DNA of 64,000 nt, taken from Bdellovibrionota bacterium. GTDB taxonomy: Bacteria > Bdellovibrionota > UBA2428. The stretch covers positions 77,650-141,649 of the forward strand of contig JBGSZX010000043.1 of assembly GCA_041750195.1 (NCBI GenBank), written 5' to 3'. A program made the position numbers and the translations under genes. Below the pieces are notes generated by a model that saw only the letters and a list, made by a program, of their open reading frames with translations, made no database searches and was not told the origin of the DNA. Positions 35,816 to 51,192 of this stretch are shown here, piece by piece. The stretch's first letter is position 1, and every line of letters starts with the position of its first letter.

Positions 35816-36172
35816 CTATTCTGACTCTTCTTCCAAATCGTTTGTGCCACCATGATGTGCCTTGCCAGAATGATTGGTAGCTCGCTCTTTATGCTTACGA
35901 GTTTGTTGAACTAGCTTGTCTGTCAAATCGTCTATTGCGGCATACATATTGTCGCCACGCGCCTCGGCCTTAGCTTCGAACTCTCCCGACACAACGTGTG
36001 CCTGGGCGATATGATCATTTTTTTCGGTCTCAAACACAAAATCAACATGAGTCATACTATGCAGATGTTTGGCCAGTTTATTTGCTTTCTTTTCGGCATA
36101 CAGGCGAACGGCATCCGACGAGTCCATCCCCCTAAACGCAACACGAGCTTCAATTTTTGATGTATCTATCAT
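35816..36172 (-). CDS. hpf: Ribosome hibernation promoting factor / sigma-54 modulation protein (RaiA/HPF family)
   Basis: 118 aa, HPF-like sequence. Canonical position directly downstream of rpoN. Confidence 0.8.
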   Translation of the reverse strand: MIDTSKIEARVAFRGMDSSDAVRLYAEKKANKLAKHLHSMTHVDFVFETEKNDHIAQAHVVSGEFEAKAEARGDNMYAAIDDLTDKLVQQTRKHKERATNHSGKAHHGGTNDLEEESE

Positions 36173-36193: not shown

Positions 36194-37648
36194 CTAAAAA
36201 TATTTTTTGCGCTTGCTAGAAGGCAATATTCCCAGGGCTTCCCTATACTTAGCAACAGTTCTCCGAGCGATGTTGATATTGTTTTCTTTCAAGGCCGTCG
36301 TAATGGCCTGATCGCTCAATGGCTTCTTTTGATTTTCAGACGAAATCAATTCTTTGATTTTTTGCTTTACCGATTCACTGGCCAAATCTTCTTCGCCGTC
36401 ACCTCGACTAATAGCAGAGTTGAAAAAATACTTTAATTCATAAATACCATGTGGAGTATGAACAAACTTATTTGTAGTCACCCGTGAAATCGTTGACTCA
36501 TGTAACTCGAGTTCTTCGGCGATATCCCGCAAGACCATTGGCTTAAGATGCTGAGGTCCTTTTTCAAAAAAATCCATCTGGCGATTTAGAATTGATTCCG
36601 TAACTCGATAAATGGTTCGCTGCCTTTGATAAATACTTCGCATGAGCCAAACAGCACCCTTCAGTTTTTCACGGACATAAGCCTTCGCCTCGCCTTTGAG
36701 CAAACCGCTGTTGAGCTGATCTTGATAGGTTTTAGAAACTTTTAGCCGAGGAATGCCATCCTCATTCAAGACAACCGAAAATTTTCCACCGCTATGAACA
36801 ATATAAATGTCCGGGACCACATAACTTGGCTCGGAGTTACTAAACAAACGTCCGGGCTTTGGCTCCATATGATGAACGATTTTACACATCTCAATAACGT
36901 CTTCGAGGTCCATTTCCATTTTTTTAGCAATGGCATTGTAGTTTTTTGTTTCAAGTTCGTTTAAATGATTCTCGATAAGCTCAACCACATCATCATGGTA
37001 TTCAAGCTGTTCGGCTTGTATCATCAAACATTCTTTTAAATTTCTTGCCGCGACCCCCGGCGGATCAAATCGTTGAATCTTATAAAGAACTGCCTCAATT
37101 TCGGCTCGATCAACTTCACACTTTTGTTCTAACTCTTCGACCAACAACACCAAATATCCATCTTCATTTAAATTGCCGATGATCTCTTCAGCAATTTCGA
37201 ATTCTTTTTCATCATTTGCGGTCAATCGAAGTTGCCACATCAAATGATCGTAGAGAGTCGACGGCCTAGACAAGATCTGCTCGAAATTTGGAAGCTCATC
37301 GGGATTAAAGTTTTTTGTCGTTGGAAGGTATTCGCGATTGCCGCTGCTTTGCTCGATATAACTTTGCCAGTCAAAGTCATCATTTGCATCTGTGATTTGA
37401 TCTTTAGGACTGTCATTTTCTCCGGAACTTTTTTGGTCTTCGCCTTCTCCCGCGGCACCAATATTACTAACGCTCGAATCAGGCTCAGCCTGATCTCCGC
37501 CCTCTTCAAGCACGGGGTTGTCGACAAGAGCATCCGTGACTTCTTGCTGAAGCTCAACAACAGACATCTGCAATATCTTAATTGCCTGCTGTAACTGAGG
37601 AGTCATAGTCATCCCCAGCGTTTGTTTCATTTGCTGCTTTAATCCCAT
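36194..37648 (-). CDS. rpoN: RNA polymerase sigma-54 factor
   Basis: C-terminal RpoN box ARRTVAKYRE. N-terminal Gln/Leu-rich region. Canonical lptB-rpoN-hpf context. Confidence 0.9.
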   Translation of the reverse strand: MGLKQQMKQTLGMTMTPQLQQAIKILQMSVVELQQEVTDALVDNPVLEEGGDQAEPDSSVSNIGAAGEGEDQKSSGENDSPKDQITDANDDFDWQSYIEQSSGNREYLPTTKNFNPDELPNFEQILSRPSTLYDHLMWQLRLTANDEKEFEIAEEIIGNLNEDGYLVLLVEELEQKCEVDRAEIEAVLYKIQRFDPPGVAARNLKECLMIQAEQLEYHDDVVELIENHLNELETKNYNAIAKKMEMDLEDVIEMCKIVHHMEPKPGRLFSNSEPSYVVPDIYIVHSGGKFSVVLNEDGIPRLKVSKTYQDQLNSGLLKGEAKAYVREKLKGAVWLMRSIYQRQRTIYRVTESILNRQMDFFEKGPQHLKPMVLRDIAEELELHESTISRVTTNKFVHTPHGIYELKYFFNSAISRGDGEEDLASESVKQKIKELISSENQKKPLSDQAITTALKENNINIARRTVAKYREALGILPSSKRKKYF

Positions 37649-37674: not shown

Positions 37675-38409
37675 TCAATTAAGCCTAAATGACTCCCCTA
37701 AATAAAACTTTTTCGCCTCTTCACTTTCAGAAATTGCTTGGGGGGTTCCGTCAAAGAAAATACGTCCCTCCTTCATCAAAAATCCCTGATCACATGTACC
37801 CAAAGTTTCTCGAACATTATGATCCGTGATTAAAACTCCAATGTTTTGACTTCGAAGTTCACGTACAAACTCTTGAATCTCACCGACAGCAATTGGATCG
37901 ATGCCGGCAAAAGGTTCGTCGAGTAAAAGATAATGTGGCTCGATAGCAAGGCACCTCGCAATCTCACACCGACGTCGCTCTCCACCGGAAAGAGTAGCCG
38001 CTGCACTTTTAGCCAGCCTTAACAAACCAAATCTTCTCATCAAATTTTCACATCTCGCCTCTAGTTCGCTTCCTTCGAAACCCTTAGCTTCGAGAGCCAT
38101 CGCAATATTTTCGAAGACACTTAGTTTTTGAAAGAGGCTGCCCTCCTGAGGAAGGTAAGAAATTCCCCGTCGCGCCCTTTGAGGCAATGGCAAATTGGTT
38201 ACATCTTCGTTATCAAGAAAAATTCCGCCTTGAGTTGGAAAAACAAGTCCGACCATCATATAGAAACTTGTCGTTTTTCCAGCACCATTAGGGCCAAGAA
38301 GGCCCACTATTTCTCCGCGATTTAATGTTATGGAAACGTCGCTAACGACTTCGCGCTCACCATATACTTTTGAAATCGACGTTGCTACCAATCCACCTGT
38401 CTGCGACAT
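37675..38409 (-). CDS. lptB: LPS export ABC transporter ATP-binding protein
   Basis: Walker A GPNGAGKTT, ABC signature LSGGERRR and Walker B LLLDEP. Lies immediately upstream of rpoN. Confidence 0.85.
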   Translation of the reverse strand: MSQTGGLVATSISKVYGEREVVSDVSITLNRGEIVGLLGPNGAGKTTSFYMMVGLVFPTQGGIFLDNEDVTNLPLPQRARRGISYLPQEGSLFQKLSVFENIAMALEAKGFEGSELEARCENLMRRFGLLRLAKSAAATLSGGERRRCEIARCLAIEPHYLLLDEPFAGIDPIAVGEIQEFVRELRSQNIGVLITDHNVRETLGTCDQGFLMKEGRIFFDGTPQAISESEEAKKFYLGESFRLN

Positions 38410-38511: not shown

Positions 38512-39786
38512 TCAGTGTAAAGTTTTTGACCCTTTGCCTTTTTTAGGGGGCTTTGCGGACTTTTGAGGGCCTTTTTTCTTTTTTTTCTCCAAAAAAAGTA
38601 AGGTTTCAATATGGGCTGTTTGAGGGAACATATCGAAGGGTTCGATAGATTTAATCACGTATCCCTGCTCCGCCAATATTTTTGCATCTCTAGCCAAAGT
38701 TTTGGGATTGCATGACACGTAGATTATTTTTTTCGCGGGTTTTTTTAGAATGAGCTCAAGCACTTCCTTCTCGCACCCCTTACGAGGAGGATTTAGAACC
38801 ACCCAATCGGGCAAACCCCATTCCTTATGAAAAATATTTACGCCTTCGAGTGCGTCTGCACACAGATGCAGAACATTATTAATTTTATTTCTTCGAGCAG
38901 CGGTCACACCCTCTAAAGCTGCAGGTCCAACTTCTTCAACCGACAAAACATTTTCAGTTTTAGATGCCAAGTGCATTCCCATTAGCCCCAAACCACCATA
39001 CAAATCTAGCCCCTGCGAAAAAGGTCCTTTGCCAACAATTTCTTTCACTCTCAAATATAGTTTTGAAGCTTGTCCGCTGTTAACTTGCAAAAAAGAAAGT
39101 GGGCCAATTGATACACGCAATGCCCCCATCTGCTCGGTAAGCTCTGCATTTTTACTCAAAAAGCGATTGGCTTCACCTAACAATACATTTCCAGGATCGT
39201 CGTTAATATTTTGGACAATAGCGACAATTTCTTTTCCAAATTTTTCTTTCAATTCATCGACCAACTTCGACAAGCCAGGAACAGTTTTTCGCGTCGTCAC
39301 AAAGACACACATGACTTTTTTATCTCTAAACGAATAGCGAACTATTAGATACCTTAAAGCAGCACCGGAAAAATCATCGTTTGCCACAGGAACACTTTGT
39401 AGAATGAGGTGTTTTTTGATAAATGCAGAAACTTCATTGATAAAAGGGGCATGTACCGAGCAGTGGGGAATGTCCACAACCTGATGCGTTCCCGCCTTAT
39501 AAATTCCCATCTTCAGCGTTTCTTCGGACTTGCTTGATCCCTGGATTATCCATTTAGCCTTATTTCGATAGCCCAACGTTTTAGGAGAAGGGACGCATTT
39601 TTTCATTTTTTCTTTGATTTGAGATTCAGAAAATCCCGCATTCACAAAAGCATCTAAAACCATAATTTCTTTTTGTCTTAGCTGCTCTTTATAGGATTGT
39701 TGGATCAAAGGGCACCCGCTGCATTCCTGCCAGTGGGGACAGGGTATTTTTGATTCGTCTTTCTCCATAAATTTCTGCTTCACCAA
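38512..39786 (-). CDS. Class I SAM-dependent RNA (uracil-5)-methyltransferase, RlmD/RumA family, with a lysine-rich C-terminal tail
   Basis: N-terminal Cys cluster CPHWQECSGCPL (4Fe-4S) and a C-terminal methyltransferase fold. The tail is KKKKKGPQKSAKPPKKGKGSK. Confidence 0.65.
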   Translation of the reverse strand: MVKQKFMEKDESKIPCPHWQECSGCPLIQQSYKEQLRQKEIMVLDAFVNAGFSESQIKEKMKKCVPSPKTLGYRNKAKWIIQGSSKSEETLKMGIYKAGTHQVVDIPHCSVHAPFINEVSAFIKKHLILQSVPVANDDFSGAALRYLIVRYSFRDKKVMCVFVTTRKTVPGLSKLVDELKEKFGKEIVAIVQNINDDPGNVLLGEANRFLSKNAELTEQMGALRVSIGPLSFLQVNSGQASKLYLRVKEIVGKGPFSQGLDLYGGLGLMGMHLASKTENVLSVEEVGPAALEGVTAARRNKINNVLHLCADALEGVNIFHKEWGLPDWVVLNPPRKGCEKEVLELILKKPAKKIIYVSCNPKTLARDAKILAEQGYVIKSIEPFDMFPQTAHIETLLFLEKKKKKGPQKSAKPPKKGKGSKTLH

Positions 39787-39801
39787 AAGGGATTTTCCCC
39801 T

Positions 39802-40518
39802 TTACTTGGCAGCGCCTCCATCACTCGATCCAGACGCCGATTTTCCACCTTCAGCTTCCGCCCCACCATTTGTTGGAAACGGTGAACCGCCCTCTGAGTC
39901 TCCCCTACCACATTTGAGATCCTGTAAATATATAGGAGGAGTTTGGCCCGTATAGTAAACAATAAACGTTGATTGCCCTGTGAATCCCGGCCTAAATTCC
40001 ACACGGTTTCCATTTTCTGCGTAAAAAATCATGGAGGCTCGATCGATTAAATTGATATAATTTTCGACTTGGATGATCTTCCGCTTTCCACCTTCATCAA
40101 CAAACCTGTTGTAATGATTTTCCTTGGTCACAATAGATTCTACTCGCCCATCATGAAGTGTCCGACGAAAGACAAATGAAATATATCCCTCTTTATCCAT
40201 CACCTGATGAATTTCCCATTCAGAAAAGCTTTTCTGAATATTGAGCCTCATTTTGTCGCGAGCCAACAATCTAGATTTTCGATTTGTTTTCCTCGAGATC
40301 CAAGGAATCTGATCAATAACAAGGCATGATGCGATCTGATTGAGCGTAAGCCCTGTTTTAAAAATAGGCTTGCTGACAACCTTCTGCCTAACAGCTGTAG
40401 AACTCCCAACATCCTCATAGAACCCTGATCCGTCTTTTTTCTTTTTTTGATCTAATGATTGCGCCGAAACTGCACTCGTCGACATGGCAAAAAATAATAT
40501 GACAAATAGGGTCCGCAT
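39802..40518 (-). CDS. Hypothetical periplasmic protein with a Gly/Ser-rich C-terminus
   Basis: Signal peptide MRTLFVILFFAMSTSAVSA. No recognised motif. Confidence 0.5.
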   Translation of the reverse strand: MRTLFVILFFAMSTSAVSAQSLDQKKKKDGSGFYEDVGSSTAVRQKVVSKPIFKTGLTLNQIASCLVIDQIPWISRKTNRKSRLLARDKMRLNIQKSFSEWEIHQVMDKEGYISFVFRRTLHDGRVESIVTKENHYNRFVDEGGKRKIIQVENYINLIDRASMIFYAENGNRVEFRPGFTGQSTFIVYYTGQTPPIYLQDLKCGRGDSEGGSPFPTNGGAEAEGGKSASGSSDGGAAK

Positions 40519-40532
40519 TAGCTTAAATTGTA

Positions 40533-41738
40533 TCAGAACAAATCTCTAAGAACACGGTTCCGAGCCATGAGCCTTTGACGGGCCTTATATTCACGATGCC
40601 GGCTTCGGCCACCGATGGCCTCGACATAGGATTCTTTATCCAAAATCTGGACCTCGAACGGGTAATAAAAGGTTCGCTTTTCCCTGAGCGTAATAGGGAC
40701 TTGCTTTAACGCTTCAGCAACACCTTTTTCGTGAATAATTTGAGACTTTAAATCGGTCCAAAACATGAATGTCGGATCGGGAGCGACAATTAACTGACGG
40801 CAGGTAAATTGAATGGCTCTATACCACGATGAAGAGAATCTATTTTTAATACTCTTCAATGAAACCGCAGTTTCATTCTCCATCTTTCGAAGAGCATAAT
40901 GAAACGATGCCTCGTCAAGATCATTAGCCTCTATTTGATGCCCCATGTCCTCGACAAAATTACGAAAAGTTTCGGTAGGAATAAGCGTATTCAGAGAACG
41001 TTGGGGATGAATATTGGTTGGCGAAACCAGGCCAGTTTCGAAGAGAACCCGAACTAACTGAAAAGCCTCCCAACGGGTTTCAGTTACAAATCTAAAGCCG
41101 ATACGATCATAGATAGCTTCAACCATGGTCTTGGGCTTTGAAAGCAACTTTACCAAGGTCGAATTGCGATCTTTTCTTTCTTTTTTAAGGTAGCGAACTA
41201 GCTTTACGCTATTTTTACCCTGGCCAAGGGTCCATCTTCTTTCGTCAGCAACGGGTTGAATCATGCGATCAAATCTCTGAAAAATTTGCTCTCTCGCATA
41301 GCGAAAATTCTCAAACCTCACATCGTTGTCCAGATGAGAAATAATATGCATAACCCTAAGCACAGCACAGCTCCAGCGACTTGCAGCCGTGGGCGTGTTC
41401 TTTGAAGCCTCCTGTAGGAGCCTAAGAATATCACTTTGGTTGCCCCTGGTTAAAAAGGATTCAGGAATGTCTTCGCCATCATTCAACAAAGCATTTCTTA
41501 AAAAGGAGACTGCCTCAAAATAAATTTTCCAAATTTCTTCTCGTTCAATGGGAGACTCCGGATCATAACCGTAGGACTCCAAAAACTGAGCAGCCTCTTG
41601 CTTTGAGTGAATGTTTAATTTTTGAACGTCGACGTACGAACGACCTTCGGTCGCAGCATAAAGAGCATCCCAATCAAAATTGATCTGATCCAAAATTACC
41701 AGGCGTCTCCGTCGTCGGAACCTCGACGCGAAGACCAA
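40533..41738 (-). CDS. Hypothetical 401-aa cytoplasmic protein; possible nucleotidyltransferase (RelA/SpoT-like) fold, low confidence
   Basis: YDRIGFRFV, LVRVLFETGLVSP and RSLNTLI segments loosely resemble the D-x-x-G-x-R strand, the hG-h-P strand and the SLHT motifs of RSH synthetase domains. A possible TTG start at 41691-41693 would remove the 43-bp overlap with the upstream gene. Confidence 0.5.
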   Translation of the reverse strand: MVFASRFRRRRRLVILDQINFDWDALYAATEGRSYVDVQKLNIHSKQEAAQFLESYGYDPESPIEREEIWKIYFEAVSFLRNALLNDGEDIPESFLTRGNQSDILRLLQEASKNTPTAASRWSCAVLRVMHIISHLDNDVRFENFRYAREQIFQRFDRMIQPVADERRWTLGQGKNSVKLVRYLKKERKDRNSTLVKLLSKPKTMVEAIYDRIGFRFVTETRWEAFQLVRVLFETGLVSPTNIHPQRSLNTLIPTETFRNFVEDMGHQIEANDLDEASFHYALRKMENETAVSLKSIKNRFSSSWYRAIQFTCRQLIVAPDPTFMFWTDLKSQIIHEKGVAEALKQVPITLREKRTFYYPFEVQILDKESYVEAIGGRSRHREYKARQRLMARNRVLRDLF

Positions 41739-42415
41739 TCTTCATCGTCCTCACTCCACTCGTCGGAATCATCAAAATCGGTATCGCTATCTTCTTCGTC
41801 CTCAGTCGCCTCAATACCTGTTGGGTCGTCTTTCCACCAAGGAGGAGGTCCTTCGGAGACTTCTTCTTCAACCTCTTCTTCCCCTTCAAATTCAATCTTC
41901 GCTTCATCTTCTTCATCGTCATCTTCGCTATCGCCCTCGTCGGCAAATGAATCAAAGCGGCTGGCACTAAACGAATCATCATCAAGATCTTCGTCATCAT
42001 CATAAATACTTTTTGAAGAAGCCGATCGGCTAGGGCCCTCACCAAACTTCTCGCCATCATTGTCAAAGTCTTCTAGGTCTTCGATCTCATCCAATTCGTC
42101 ATCGTCCCCCGACAAAATAGCTTTTGCTTTGGACGGCTTTAGCGGAGCCGGTTTTGAACTCTCCGAATTTTTTAGAGCAGGCTTCTTGGATACTTTACTA
42201 GACGTTGAAGCACTTGCTTTTTTGTCTGTGGATTTTGCCACAGTTTTAGCTCCAGATTTAGCTCCAGATTTTGCCGCAGCTTTAACTGACGTTTTAGCAG
42301 CAGGCTTTGTCGCCGCCTTTTTCGCTGCAGTTTTTGTAGTTTTCTTTACAGCTTTTTTCGCCGTCTTATTCTTTGTAGCCATTCCAGGTCCTTTCACCTT
42401 TGTAATGTCCCTCAC
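41696..42415 (-). CDS. Dipolar low-complexity protein: Lys/Ala/Thr-rich histone-H1-like N-terminal region followed by a long Asp/Glu-rich acidic tail
   Basis: N-terminus AKKAVKKTTKTAAKKAATKPAAKTSVKAAAKSGAKSGAKTVAKS. C-terminus about 150 aa rich in D/E (DDDEDLDDDSF...EDEEDSDTDFDDSDEW). Coding on this strand is supported by a long ORF in a compositionally biased region. Confidence 0.5.
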   Translation of the reverse strand: MRDITKVKGPGMATKNKTAKKAVKKTTKTAAKKAATKPAAKTSVKAAAKSGAKSGAKTVAKSTDKKASASTSSKVSKKPALKNSESSKPAPLKPSKAKAILSGDDDELDEIEDLEDFDNDGEKFGEGPSRSASSKSIYDDDEDLDDDSFSASRFDSFADEGDSEDDDEEDEAKIEFEGEEEVEEEVSEGPPPWWKDDPTGIEATEDEEDSDTDFDDSDEWSEDDEDWSSRRGSDDGDAW

Positions 42416-42498
42416 TTGATCTATGCTTAAGGAACAAACTCGGGTTAAAAGGCTCCCTTCGGAGTGTCAAGCGAGTAGATTGAGCAATAGAAAGAAAA

Positions 42499-43288: not shown

Positions 43289-43792
43289 TCAAAGTTCGTG
43301 AGTTGAAGATCCATCGGGATGGCTCTCTTTGCCATTTTTAGAACATCCAAATAACTCATACTGACGGTACCGCATTTGGCTTTGGCTCGCGACTGCCTCA
43401 AGCGTTTTTATAATTGTTTGTTGTTCCGAAAAATCGATCGCCAAATTACGCAACTCCGCAGATTCTGATTGAACGTCGGTTAAATCTGCCGCTTCATATT
43501 CACCAATGTATTTTTCAACCAGCTCAGATTCAGTAATTTTTTCAATCTTTATAGCAACGCCCTTTGCGAGCAGTCTTGCCCGAAGAACTTCTAATTTTTT
43601 ACGCGCTTTCTCTATCTCATGAGTTATCTTTTCGTACTTTTCAAGTTCCAAATTATACTGGCTCAGCATCGAATCTCTCATTGCATCCGCCGATTTACAC
43701 TTTAGATCAATTTCTTTCATTTCGACTGCGTTTGAGGGCAGAGAAAGTGTAAAAGTTAACAAACAAATAGCGACTCTAAGAATATGCTTCAT
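43289..43792 (-). CDS. Hypothetical secreted coiled-coil protein
   Basis: Signal peptide present. Heptad-like E/K/L-rich sequence. Confidence 0.45.
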   Translation of the reverse strand: MKHILRVAICLLTFTLSLPSNAVEMKEIDLKCKSADAMRDSMLSQYNLELEKYEKITHEIEKARKKLEVLRARLLAKGVAIKIEKITESELVEKYIGEYEAADLTDVQSESAELRNLAIDFSEQQTIIKTLEAVASQSQMRYRQYELFGCSKNGKESHPDGSSTHEL

Positions 43793-47339: not shown

Positions 47340-47714
47340 ATGAGTACTGAAGAAGAAGACAGCCAGGGTGGCATAAACAGGCGATTAAAACCCCGTTATG
47401 CCGTAGACATCAGAATCGAAATGCTTACCAAGGGGCTTGACCATTACGTGGTAGAGCGCTGTGCCAACGTTTCGCTTGGTGGTGTTTTTGTTTGTTCCGA
47501 CTATTCAGCCCAAATGAACGAACGCGTTCACGTACGAATCATTCTTGCGGATCAAGATGCATACTTCGACGTTAAAACGGAAGTTGCCTGGATCTGCGAT
47601 GGCTCAGGCTCCCACCCCAAAGGACTAGGCTTAAGATTTATAGAGCTTAGTAAAGAGCAAGACATGATCATTGACCGTTTTCTTCGGGAATATGTGAATG
47701 TTCAAGGCGATTAA
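47340..47714 (+). CDS. PilZ-domain (c-di-GMP-binding) protein
   Basis: The RxxxR (RRLKPRYA) and D/NxSxGG (NVSLGGVFV) motifs have PilZ-like spacing. 124 aa. Overlaps the downstream YihY gene by 17 bp. Confidence 0.6.
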   Translation: MSTEEEDSQGGINRRLKPRYAVDIRIEMLTKGLDHYVVERCANVSLGGVFVCSDYSAQMNERVHVRIILADQDAYFDVKTEVAWICDGSGSHPKGLGLRFIELSKEQDMIIDRFLREYVNVQGD

Positions 47715-49032: not shown

Positions 49033-51192
49033 ATGATTAAAAAAGCAAATCCCCTCACCCCTCTTCTAGCAATCATTTGTATTTTATTGTTTTCGAACTC
49101 TTTAAGAGCGCAATCAATTGATGCCAATCCAAAGGCCGCGATTGATGCCACTAAAATGATTGAATCTTCGAATTCGAAAATATATCGCGCACGAGTATTG
49201 CTCGAAGATTATAGAAATTGGCCTCAAAGTTATGAGCTCATCAGAGATGTCATCAAAAATGACGACACTCTTAACAAAGTTGCAAAAAAGAAATTAGAAA
49301 AAGCTGCAGGGCAAATTAAATACTATCTTCCCTCTAAGTGGTTTAGCCGAACCATCAACAGCAGACACCTCATACGCCCCTTCCTAGAAGCTAGTTACCT
49401 TATCAACGAAGCTCTTATGGACTCAAGAATTGCACTCAATAGTAGCTCAGATTCGGAAGTTCCTTTTGTTGAACAACTATTAAAAAGCTATTTTTTCCCG
49501 GGCAACGAGTCGGCCGGCCGTATTGAGTACCCGGAATTAGACACATATGCCTTTGATCTTTATTCTTTAACAGAAAAAAATATTGCTCAAGCAAAGCGCG
49601 AGCGAAGTGATGAAGAGAATGCAAGCGGCAATAATAACGACTCCGATAATAATCCCGCCAATCCTCCACATTTAGGCGGACCTCGAAGAGATCCCCGAGT
49701 TGGTGATTATGACCTCGACGACCAGCAATTAAACACACGCTACAAAGCCTCAAATGGTTTTGTTCTAGATTTGATATCAAAGGGTGTAGAAATTTCTGAA
49801 ATTACAAAAGAAGTTTCGGATCTCATCAAGCGCTATCAGGTTCCCAAACGCGTTCACAACCGTTACCTAGAACTTTCTTTGCTTCTTCAAGCCGTGGTTG
49901 ATCCAGGTACTGTACTTTTTGATCCCCAATTGCAAGGCTTTCTGAAGGGCGTTCGCCTTAAAGTTGCTCTAGGACAAACTGACAACAGTGCCGCTGACGA
50001 ATTGTTGAGCCTAAGATCTGAACTTGGCAACAGGGCTGTTGTAAAAACGGACGATGAAGTTCGAGTGAGACTGAGCTACCTCATGGACATGCAACGCAAT
50101 AACCCTTACGCAAAAAATGGGATTGAACTTTCTCTTAAGGAAGTAAAAGGAACAGGTAGATCTATTCTTTATGCTATCTCAACAGTTTCTGGCGAAGAGC
50201 AACTTGCATTACGCACCTTACAAATGGCGGCGACAATCGCTCGAGATGCTGATCAAATCAAAGTTGTCGGGACGACACTTAGGGCCTATCCAGCAATTGC
50301 TAAACTTCAGAGTTTAGCAAATATATCCCTGAGCAAACTAGCTGCTGCACTTCCCGCAGCCGCGAGAGCTGTTAACGAAATGGCCATTGCAACCAACAGA
50401 GGCGCTATTGGCGCCTCATTGCGATCGCTTTCATGGACGTTAAAGGGCATCGTCTCTATTCAAAATGTTGGCGTGAAAATTTCTCAAAACCTTAGCCCGA
50501 AAGCTCTTAAACTTTTGGCGGCTGCAAAGAATAACAAATATGTTAAAAATGGAAGCGCCACTGGAATTTTAACTCTTGCTGCAGCTGCAACTCAGATTAC
50601 GATCGGTGTGATCGAATACCGCGCAACTGACGACACTGACGAAAAATTTGATATCTACATCGACACGACAGCACGAGTCGCGGCTACGGCAACCTATATG
50701 CTTCCCGTTGTCGGCTGGGCTGCTGCTGCTCTTGACCTCGGCCACGCTTTCTTAGGTGTGCCATTTGAAACTGCCGACGTTTACAAAGGATATGCTTGGT
50801 TTGTTGGAGAGATCACTCTTAGCTTCTATGGATTAAGCAGCGTCAAAGTAAAGATGATCGAAGCCGAAGCCGCTTTAAACTTACCGCGTAATAATATATT
50901 CTTTGAACGTTACGGAAAACTCAGACGAAATGAAGTGGCAAGTTACGAATCAACTAAGAAATCTCTTGTGAACCTTCGTGCAGAACTTCAACAAGTCGCC
51001 CTCAATGAGATGAGCTTTCTCTACATTGCCCATAGAACTTTTGCCTCGAGCACTGACTATAGTTTTGGTGAAAGGATCGAGACCCATCACCGCTCTTTGA
51101 TCTCGAACCTTAAAATGGTTGCGAGCATTGAAACGATGCTAAATGAACGTCTCCTAGAATTTGGCGACGTAGCTTCGAACGACGAAAATTGA
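49033..51192 (+). CDS. Large hypothetical secreted protein (719 aa)
   Basis: Signal peptide (LLAIICILLFSNSLRAQS). Helical, Ala-rich middle region. No catalytic motif recognised. Followed by a strong terminator. Confidence 0.6.
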   Translation: MIKKANPLTPLLAIICILLFSNSLRAQSIDANPKAAIDATKMIESSNSKIYRARVLLEDYRNWPQSYELIRDVIKNDDTLNKVAKKKLEKAAGQIKYYLPSKWFSRTINSRHLIRPFLEASYLINEALMDSRIALNSSSDSEVPFVEQLLKSYFFPGNESAGRIEYPELDTYAFDLYSLTEKNIAQAKRERSDEENASGNNNDSDNNPANPPHLGGPRRDPRVGDYDLDDQQLNTRYKASNGFVLDLISKGVEISEITKEVSDLIKRYQVPKRVHNRYLELSLLLQAVVDPGTVLFDPQLQGFLKGVRLKVALGQTDNSAADELLSLRSELGNRAVVKTDDEVRVRLSYLMDMQRNNPYAKNGIELSLKEVKGTGRSILYAISTVSGEEQLALRTLQMAATIARDADQIKVVGTTLRAYPAIAKLQSLANISLSKLAAALPAAARAVNEMAIATNRGAIGASLRSLSWTLKGIVSIQNVGVKISQNLSPKALKLLAAAKNNKYVKNGSATGILTLAAAATQITIGVIEYRATDDTDEKFDIYIDTTARVAATATYMLPVVGWAAAALDLGHAFLGVPFETADVYKGYAWFVGEITLSFYGLSSVKVKMIEAEAALNLPRNNIFFERYGKLRRNEVASYESTKKSLVNLRAELQQVALNEMSFLYIAHRTFASSTDYSFGERIETHHRSLISNLKMVASIETMLNERLLEFGDVASNDEN

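Follow-up and report, generated by a model that had tools for sequence, protein, structure and literature searches.

In a 64,000-nucleotide (nt) stretch of a Bdellovibrionota genome (assembly GCA_041750195.1, contig JBGSZX010000043.1, positions 77,650 to 141,649), here called the window, three consecutive open reading frames (ORFs) lie on the minus strand upstream of rlmD. Their coordinates (41696-42415, 40533-41738, and 39802-40518) agree with an original prediction made from the nucleotide sequence alone, which had seen in the middle ORF a possible alarmone-type synthetase with a charged partner protein. Judged by sequence profiles and a structure model, the 401-amino-acid (aa) product of this middle gene is a very divergent RelA/SpoT homologue (RSH) synthetase with a five-strand/helix core. 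The genes are as follows.

41696-42415, minus strand: gene of a dipolar, disordered protein, an ORF of 239 aa from GTG 42415, with its stop codon at 41696-41698
40533-41738, minus strand: enzyme gene, TIGR04562/TIGR04552 family, predicted divergent RSH-type synthetase, 401 aa from TTG 41738
39802-40518, minus strand: ORF for a periplasmic-type protein of 238 aa
38512-39786, minus strand: rlmD (23S rRNA U1939 methyltransferase; TIGR00479, E 2.8e-85), 15 nt downstream of the periplasmic gene

ATG 42382 is the most likely start of the dipolar gene, because the "MA.K" found there aligns with the N termini of orthologs; its product would then have 228 aa. Read from TTG 41738, the 401-aa ORF overlaps the upstream stop codon by 43 nt. 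An in-frame TTG at 41693, 2 nt past the dipolar stop, gives an enzyme of 386 aa, and this is probably the actual start, since most homologs have 385 to 389 aa and the orthologous genes start at that position. The description of the two genes as overlapping, or as abutting if a TTG start is used, was therefore correct. Residue numbers below refer to the 401-aa form of the enzyme and the 228-aa form of the dipolar protein. Further long ORFs, read in other frames or from the other strand (41622-42005, plus; 42060-42419, plus; 41674-42066, minus; 39780-40013, minus), run over the dipolar and periplasmic genes; they most likely arise from low-complexity coding sequence and do not represent genes.

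Family membership and RSH homology

The three genes had been described as lacking obvious annotation. This stands for the outer two but not for the 401-aa protein, which is a full-length member of the TIGR04562/TIGR04552 family and scores far over both cutoffs. It matches TIGR04562 with 341.7 bits (E 5e-102; cutoff, 140) over model positions 1-356 of 356, and TIGR04552 with 321.8 bits (E 6e-96; cutoff, 125) over positions 2-352 of 352. Both NCBIfam models carry the sole name "TIGR04552 family protein," without an assigned function.

The Pfam profile RelA_SpoT (PF04607) aligns to the window enzyme at 13.3 bits (E 0.1) over residues 189-233, the segment that the original prediction had singled out, and this is below the gathering score of 27 bits. 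We take the weak match to reflect real homology because the matches of homologs, the profile search against known structures, the structure model, and the profile-profile alignment all agree. In a family alignment of 44 sequences, reaching down to 33% identity, 32 match PF04607 at E ≤ 0.01, with a best E of 6.8e-8. The gathering score is exceeded by 5 of 10 tested homologs (30.9, 29.8, 30.2, 31.2, and 33.2 bits; full-length proteins of 33 to 36% identity). The best PF04607 stretch of each member covers profile positions 4-55 or 83-112, which are two separate parts of the profile.

When a mixed family profile (A1) was searched against all PDB sequences, the top two matches were Rel_Seq (1vj7; E 0.022) and Bacillus subtilis RelP (6fgk; E 0.065), and the alignment to 1vj7 places D264 of Rel_Seq on D211 and E323 on E362. 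A profile built from the distant subgroup alone (A2) gave no RSH match in the PDB and so did less well than A1, and a single-sequence search of the 401-aa protein against the PDB sequences returned only noise (E ≥ 0.29). An AlphaFold2 model made from the alignment (pLDDT 87, pTM 0.79) has the alpha/beta fold of RSH synthetases, and the best 50 Foldseek matches of this model in the PDB are all RSH proteins. Comparison by hhalign with the single sequence of Escherichia coli RelA aligned only the ExQ..HxxYK region, at a probability of 5.8%. When nine further canonical synthetase domains were added, the alignment became collinear across all motifs, with an E value of 2.3e-4, and the probability rose to 44.5%. 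Sensitive profile comparison and structure prediction thus bear out the resemblance to RSH synthetases that had been drawn from a few loosely similar segments. Pfam scans of the enzyme and its homologs detected no HD hydrolase domain and no TGS or ACT domain.

Anatomy of the enzyme

The predicted parts of the enzyme are listed in the order of the protein; conservation here and below refers to the 44 aligned sequences.

41268-41693, minus strand: helical, family-specific N-terminal domain, residues ~16-157, all-helical and ~140 aa in the model
41316-41375, minus strand: family signature WxCxxLRVMHxISHLDxDxR, W122-R141, at the end of the N-terminal domain
40980-41207, minus strand: first half of the synthetase core, residues 178-253, placed by PF04607 positions 4-55, the RelP/Rel_Seq alignment, hhalign, and the model strands
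residues 178-185, minus strand: strand 1 of the model
residues 189-201, minus strand: ATP-site helix K189..S193..K197..K201, canonical RxKxxxSxxxK, placed by profile alignment
residues 211-216, minus strand: strand 2, D211-x-x-G214-x-R216 with the putative catalytic Asp, all three residues invariant, followed by a helix
residues 243-250, minus strand: strand 3 with P245, R247, and N250, from the model and conservation
40845-40979, minus strand: insert 1, a two-helix hairpin of residues ~254-298 directly before the acceptor-binding loop, with helices at 255-270 and 276-289 in the model
40779-40844, minus strand: acceptor loop and strand 4, N299-P-F-S-S-S-W-Y306-R-A-I-Q310-F-T312-C-R314, canonical N-P-K-x-N-G-Y-x-S-x-H-T
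40680-40778, minus strand: insert 2, helical, residues ~321-353, between strands 4 and 5 in the model; PF04607 resumes only at positions 83-112
40533-40679, minus strand: strand 5 (P360-F-E362-V-Q364-I-L-D367, 360-367), final helix (H381-x-x-Y384-K385, 381-385), and stop codon

The signature at the end of the N-terminal domain is the strongest of the family, with C124, H131, H135, and R141 invariant and W122, D137, and D139 nearly so; it was one of three patterns used in our genome scan. In the ATP-site helix, K189, S193, K197, and K201 align with the K, S, K, and K of B. subtilis RelP. The three lysines are invariant and S193 is nearly so, and the first Arg of the canonical motif is offset by one position (R188/R191). 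The segment YDRIGFRFV had been likened to the DxxGxR strand, and it fits this well, with D211, G214, and R216 conserved throughout. D211 and E362, the latter corresponding to the catalytic Glu, are invariant, and the HxxYK helix is retained. The region of strand 5 and HxxYK aligns to Rel_Seq 321-347 (including E323), to E. coli RelA, and to the 10-sequence RSH profile.

The acceptor side of the putative active site differs from the canonical one. In the preferred hhalign alignment, the aromatic residue of the acceptor loop is kept (Y or F; Y306 here), the Lys is lost, and the His is replaced by an invariant Gln (Q310). N299 is likewise invariant, and S303, F311, T312, and R314 are nearly so. 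The canonical xxExQIRT reads ExQ-I-L-D, with an invariant Asp (D367). This alignment disagrees with one of the three proposed motif assignments. RSLNTLI had been taken for the SLHT motif, which is probably wrong, because the best collinear alignment puts NPKxNGYxSxHT on N299...T312; only a lower-scoring, noncollinear alternative puts the canonical loop on P245-Q-R-S-L-N250-T. The stretch LVRVLFETGLVSP, proposed as the hG-h-P strand, forms a helix and loop in the model, and no strand. Insert 1 (~45 to 55 aa) is present in all 44 aligned members and missing from the canonical RSH profile. Many family representatives of ~340 to 370 aa give a two-stretch profile match whose first stretch ends near position 308, and insert 2 may be absent from these shorter proteins.

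To our knowledge, all RSH synthetases characterized so far take the beta-gamma pyrophosphate from ATP and attach it to the 3'-OH of a ribose acceptor. In the family alignment and the model, the donor (ATP) side and the catalytic carboxylates look intact and the acceptor side looks remodeled, and we therefore infer a working pyrophosphokinase that is not tied to GDP or GTP as its acceptor. The enzyme would most likely carry out this same transfer, and its acceptor may be a molecule other than GDP or GTP. As the acceptor Lys and His and the IRT are replaced, both the chemistry and the identity of the substrate are put forward here as predictions.

The dipolar protein and the pairing of its gene with the enzyme gene

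The protein encoded immediately upstream of the enzyme gene consists of two oppositely charged regions, of which the second carries short conserved motifs.

42113-42382, minus strand: basic, Lys/Ala/Thr-rich N-terminal region, residues 1-90, net charge +24, pI 10.9
41699-42112, minus strand: acidic, Asp/Glu-rich region, residues 91-228, net charge -57, pI 4.05
41810-41854, minus strand: motif EGPPxWWKxDPxGIE, residues 177-191, with G178, P180, W182, W183, K184, P187, and E191 invariant in 11 aligned orthologs
41735-41776, minus strand: motif FDDSDEW[ST]EDDxxW, residues 203-216, with F203, D204, D205, S206, D207, E208, W209, D212, and W216 invariant
41699-41701, minus strand: C-terminal Trp codon; the window protein and the orthologs of all 31 scored loci end in Trp

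The dipolar architecture that had been proposed is thus real, but it is not self-neutralizing, as the whole protein has a net charge of -33. The partner proteins have 170 to 240 aa. The first half of the orthologs contains 22 to 34% Lys and 16 to 34% Ala in 13 of 14 cases, the remaining one (L001, a shorter ORF) having 17% Lys and 10% Ala; the second half contains 39 to 51% Asp plus Glu (n = 14). In the ortholog alignment, the conserved part is the acidic tail and not the Lys/Ala head. Acidic-tail stretches of the window protein include EGPPPWWKDDPTGIE, FDDSDEWSEDDEDW, and ...DDGDAW. The dipolar protein has no Pfam match at E ≤ 1, no PADLOC match, and two chance-level NCBIfam matches (E 0.45 and 0.88). 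A homology search with the 72-aa acidic tail in a database of 5.8 billion proteins gave nothing at E ≤ 0.001.

In each of the 14 close genome loci, a dipolar gene is found immediately 5' of the enzyme gene. We also retrieved metagenome loci by a pattern search with the motifs of the dipolar tail (including EGPPxWWKxDPxGIE), independently of the enzyme. In 20 of the 21 loci found in this way, the enzyme gene comes next, and in the 21st the contig ends first. Altogether, the two genes are adjacent in 35 of 35 orthologous loci, usually a few bases apart. A start could be placed in 30 loci, and in 28 of these the partner stop and the enzyme start are -7 to +69 nt apart, with enzyme identity going down to 44%. 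In the two most divergent loci (L095, 3659-4136, and L100, 3782-4328; enzyme identity, 41%), the spacing is ~480 to 545 nt.

The functional link between the enzyme and the charged upstream protein, as originally suggested, is plausible in view of the adjacency in 35 loci, the short gaps, and the conserved partner motifs. From the arrangement of the genes, the enzyme gene is probably translationally coupled to the dipolar gene in the Bacteriovorax-type clade. The invariant short acidic motifs, the terminal Trp, and the tight junction form the pattern of a docking tail, which suggests that the dipolar partner binds the enzyme through this tail. The acidic Trp-motif tail could dock on the enzyme and regulate it, and the Lys/Ala head could tether the protein to nucleic acid or ribosomes. 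Such tethering is weakly echoed by the neighbors rluA, rlmD, and hpf. The RlmD protein of the window also has a Lys-rich C-terminal extension (38512-38590; ...EKKKKKGPQKSAKPPKKGKGSKTLH). Such tails may be common throughout the lineage, in which case the basic head of the dipolar protein would be less special.

Genomic context and distribution

Downstream of rlmD, the window continues as follows, with metK, mraY, and murD further on.

35816-36172, 36194-37648, and 37675-38409, minus strand, co-directional: hpf (ribosome hibernation factor), rpoN, and lptB

In the clade of the window, the gene order is clpB, a small coiled-coil gene, rluA (divergent), the dipolar gene, the enzyme gene, the periplasmic gene, rlmD (not always present), lptB, rpoN, hpf, and metK. 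This housekeeping synteny is kept in 14 genome loci, 20 metagenome loci, and the locus L104 (35 in total), at enzyme identities of 41 to 85%, and 8 of the 14 close genome loci lack rlmD here. The periplasmic gene and rlmD-lptB-rpoN-hpf are, by position and strand, co-directional neighbors of the enzyme gene. Scans for promoter and terminator consensus sequences gave counts at or under chance expectation; in the scan, no terminator-like site was found on the minus strand between 42415 and 36194, and a very long transcription unit may therefore begin with the trio. The GC content is uniform (0.39 to 0.48), and the annotated flanking genes are all housekeeping genes, with no integrase or transposase among them.

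At the N terminus of the 238-aa periplasmic protein, a hydrophobic stretch leads up to AVSA|QS, by eye an apparent signal peptide. The protein further has a core of beta structure only (residues 50-217), a pair of invariant Cys, and a tail rich in Gly, Ser, and Ala. No recognizable fold relative was found for it, and no tie to the enzyme beyond synteny. LptA or LptC was considered as its identity, as the gene adjoins lptB where rlmD is absent, and was rejected: neither an OstA-type beta-jellyroll nor the Pfam family OstA/LptC was found.

An exhaustive hidden Markov model search with the family in 1.84 billion cluster representatives yielded 804 proteins at E ≤ 0.001 and 611 at E ≤ 1e-10. Canonical RSH proteins were apparently not pulled in, since only these 804 representatives were obtained. 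The scan of one genome per species found at least 587 family relatives. They occur mostly in Bdellovibrionota (Bacteriovoracaceae, Bdellovibrionales, and Oligoflexia), and some are found in Myxococcota and Eremiobacterota/Vulcanimicrobiota. From its distribution and gene neighborhoods, the enzyme looks chromosomal and vertically inherited, within a compact family.

The distant members (31 to 38% identity) also occupy a fixed place in a housekeeping context, beside pgpA-recA. They are divergent from pgpA in 48 of 66 loci and from recA in 41 of 66. In roughly half of these loci (26 to 32 of 66; L016-L076), the RSH-like gene is followed by genes for a ~400-aa Rossmann-type protein and a ~650-aa Fe-S protein, overlapping or a few bases apart. 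The former has a GxGxxP N terminus and only faint FAD_binding matches; the latter matches Fer4_7, Fer4_21, and Fer2_BFD. In locus L103 (6001-10399), the RSH-like gene overlaps the Rossmann-type gene by 11 nt, and the set is divergent from pgpA-recA. An RSH-type enzyme is thus linked to a redox pair in the distant subfamily. The window was searched for a second family copy, for Rossmann or Fe-S partners, and for recA/pgpA, and none was found.

In E. coli K-12 (L102, 2910500-2914500), rlmD is directly followed by relA, which has the same orientation (rlmD-relA-mazEF-mazG), and in the window the RSH-like gene (40533-41693) lies one gene upstream of rlmD. An RSH synthetase is thus found near rlmD in two very distant lineages, which could be a coincidence or the relic of a functional link. 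Between rluA and clpB, a 167-aa ORF (43289-43792, minus strand) has a signal-peptide-like start followed by a coiled coil and matches no family significantly. As tblastn did not locate it in any of the related loci, it is not detectably conserved. At 47340-47714 (plus strand) lies a gene for a TIGR02266-family protein (PilZ-type, "gmx"). Proteins of this family are typical of Myxococcota and Bdellovibrionota. A 719-aa ORF at 49033-51192 (plus strand), which has the length of a long RSH protein, gave no Rel/SpoT match and no NCBIfam match at E ≤ 1e-5.

Weighing the interpretations

We favor the explanation that the locus encodes a vertically inherited, chromosomal RSH synthetase with an altered acceptor site and a coupled dipolar partner, and we give this reading as a whole a probability of about 0.6. 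Several points weigh against it. The window enzyme itself stays below the Pfam gathering score, the hhalign probability is only 44.5%, and the canonical acceptor Lys and His are replaced, as is IRT by I-L-D. Our literature search found no published assay for any TIGR04552/62 member, and the two papers that mention TIGR04552 treat the family as uncharacterized. As to the partner, the distant family members do not have it, and the link consists of adjacency in one clade with a much wider synteny; because all loci share that wider synteny, the pairing may reflect phylogenetic inertia. The last points would fit an arrangement of mere neighbors, in which an RSH-like enzyme, an independent nucleoid- or ribosome-associated dipolar protein, and an unrelated envelope protein are just co-transcribed at the head of a housekeeping cluster. 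The entire clpB-metK region is syntenic in the clade, so adjacency alone says little; the distant members have neither a dipolar nor a periplasmic neighbor; direct contact of the extracytoplasmic periplasmic protein with a cytoplasmic enzyme is unlikely; and the lack of terminator-like sites down to 36194 would suit such co-transcription. We still find it somewhat doubtful, since the dipolar-enzyme junction is kept short in 28 of 30 loci despite the fall in enzyme identity to 44%, the trio stays together while rlmD varies within the interval, and the acidic half of the partner has the invariant motifs and terminal Trp typical of a docking tail.

The RSH fold might also serve another job, such as nucleotidyl transfer as in other enzymes of the Pol-beta fold, modification of RNA 3' ends or proteins, or noncatalytic nucleotide sensing. 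The loss of Lys and His from an acceptor loop that adjoins a 45- to 55-aa helical insert, the change of ExQIRT to ExQ-I-L-D with its invariant Asp, and the additional N-terminal domain with its invariant C/H/H/D/D/R signature would be in keeping with this, as would the operons of distant members with Rossmann-type and Fe-S proteins and the action of the neighbors rluA, rlmD, and hpf on rRNA or ribosomes. However, the catalytic carboxylates, the K..S..K..K helix of the ATP site, and HxxYK are invariant throughout the family, which argues for a working RSH-type active site and makes such a departure unlikely. A preprint (bioRxiv 10.1101/2021.04.30.441581) describes tRNA-modifying RSH enzymes as still being pyrophosphokinases, so RNA modification would fall inside the favored explanation and not against it. 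The original prediction had further seen a flavor of toxSAS or CapRel modules in the locus; the pair or trio would then be a toxin-antitoxin or antiphage system, in which the charged protein would be the antitoxin and the enzyme a toxin that either produces a toxic alarmone or pyrophosphorylates tRNA. The tight pairing of the two genes in 28 of 30 loci recalls such modules, but it is confined to one clade and absent from the others, where family members pair with Rossmann and Fe-S genes. At E ≤ 1, no PADLOC family matched the dipolar protein, the enzyme, or the periplasmic protein, and the same housekeeping neighborhood surrounds 35 of 35 orthologous loci. Together with the uniform GC content, this argues against a mobile toxin-antitoxin or defense module, as do the housekeeping flanks without integrase or transposase and the phylum-restricted, apparently vertical distribution of the family. 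Housekeeping small alarmone synthetases (RelP and RelQ) also outscore toxSAS structures, and in the family member of Bdellovibrio NC01 a frameshift reached high frequency without an antitoxin-linked signature. A toxSAS-like role is thus very improbable.

Going further than the favored explanation, TIGR04562/52 might be a lineage-specific RSH branch of predatory-type bacteria (Bdellovibrionota and Myxococcota), whose remodeled acceptor site would serve to make a messenger other than (p)ppGpp or to pyrophosphorylate RNA or a ribosomal target. Control of the enzyme in Bacteriovorax-type genomes would then fall to the dipolar protein as a switch, its head sensing nucleic acid or ribosomes and its acidic, invariant-Trp tail plugging or docking on the nucleotide site. 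We offer this fuller scheme as a speculation with long odds against it; if it holds, the dipolar protein would represent a novel class of regulator acting on an alarmone-type enzyme.

Most bacteria rely on RSH enzymes for the control of growth, stress, and persistence, and new RSH branches have repeatedly brought new chemistry, such as (p)ppApp synthesis or tRNA pyrophosphorylation. With its intact RSH catalytic core and altered acceptor site, the enzyme is a candidate second nucleotide-signaling enzyme in predatory bacteria, and the dipolar protein, which is strictly co-located with it and has an invariant Trp-acidic tail, is an unusual type of candidate regulator. What was already known is that the family exists in NCBIfam and that Pfam flags a part of it as RelA_SpoT; for this reason, and because the product and the partner interaction are predictions, we rate the value of the finding as moderate.

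Relation to published data and known systems

No paper that assigns TIGR04552/62 to the RSH enzymes turned up in our literature search. In Bdellovibrio NC01, a TIGR04552 frameshift rose to high frequency in one evolved population, and insertions in Myxococcus xanthus MXAN_4858 had a mild effect on developmental fitness. In the RSH census of 2011, Rel is the only entry for Bdellovibrio bacteriovorus, and M. xanthus (YP_633016) and Sorangium are entered with an unclassified "SYNTH[S]." The classification update of 2020 named 30 small alarmone synthetase (SAS) subfamilies. Going by the order of accession numbers only, YP_633016 may be MXAN_4858.

The basic N-terminal ~90 residues of the dipolar protein (pI 10.9) are similar to histone H1, Hc1, and AlgP in their K/A/T-rich composition. 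The likeness noticed originally holds at this level only, since no Pfam family and only the chance-level NCBIfam models match, and the conserved acidic Trp-motif tail is absent from those proteins. The toxSAS enzymes (CapRel, FaRel, FaRel2, and PhRel; PMC7229694) resemble the window enzyme in having an RSH synthetase fold and in that the gene forms a close pair, at times overlapping, with the gene of a sequence-unrelated partner. However, the window enzyme is core-genome and vertical, whereas toxSAS genes are mobile or patchy, and its partner is a disordered, dipolar protein of 170 to 240 aa, whereas the toxSAS antitoxin is folded. The switch of partner to Rossmann and Fe-S genes in other clades and the absence of a PADLOC match set it further apart. 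The claim of a toxSAS or CapRel flavor is not upheld, given the conserved housekeeping synteny, the lack of a mobile or compositional signature, and these different partners.

The enzyme's own family is TIGR04562/TIGR04552, including M. xanthus MXAN_4858 and Bdellovibrio sp. NC01 DOE51_RS08710, from which nothing in it differs. From the long RSH proteins Rel, RelA, and SpoT (PDB 1vj7, 8acu, 6yxa, and 7qpr), it differs in having no HD, TGS, or ACT domain detected by Pfam. With the single-domain (p)ppGpp synthetases RelQ/SAS1 and RelP/SAS2 (PDB 5dec, 6fgk, and 6ewz), it shares the order of motifs, from the basic ATP helix through DxxGxR and the aromatic acceptor strand to ExQ and HxxYK. Sequence identity to them is only 12 to 16%, and the window enzyme is about twice their size, with the ~140-aa helical N-terminal domain and two helical inserts, a replaced acceptor-loop Lys and His, ILD in place of IRT, and a score under the Pfam threshold. 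In predicted fold and catalytic residues, the window enzyme appears closest to a small alarmone synthetase.

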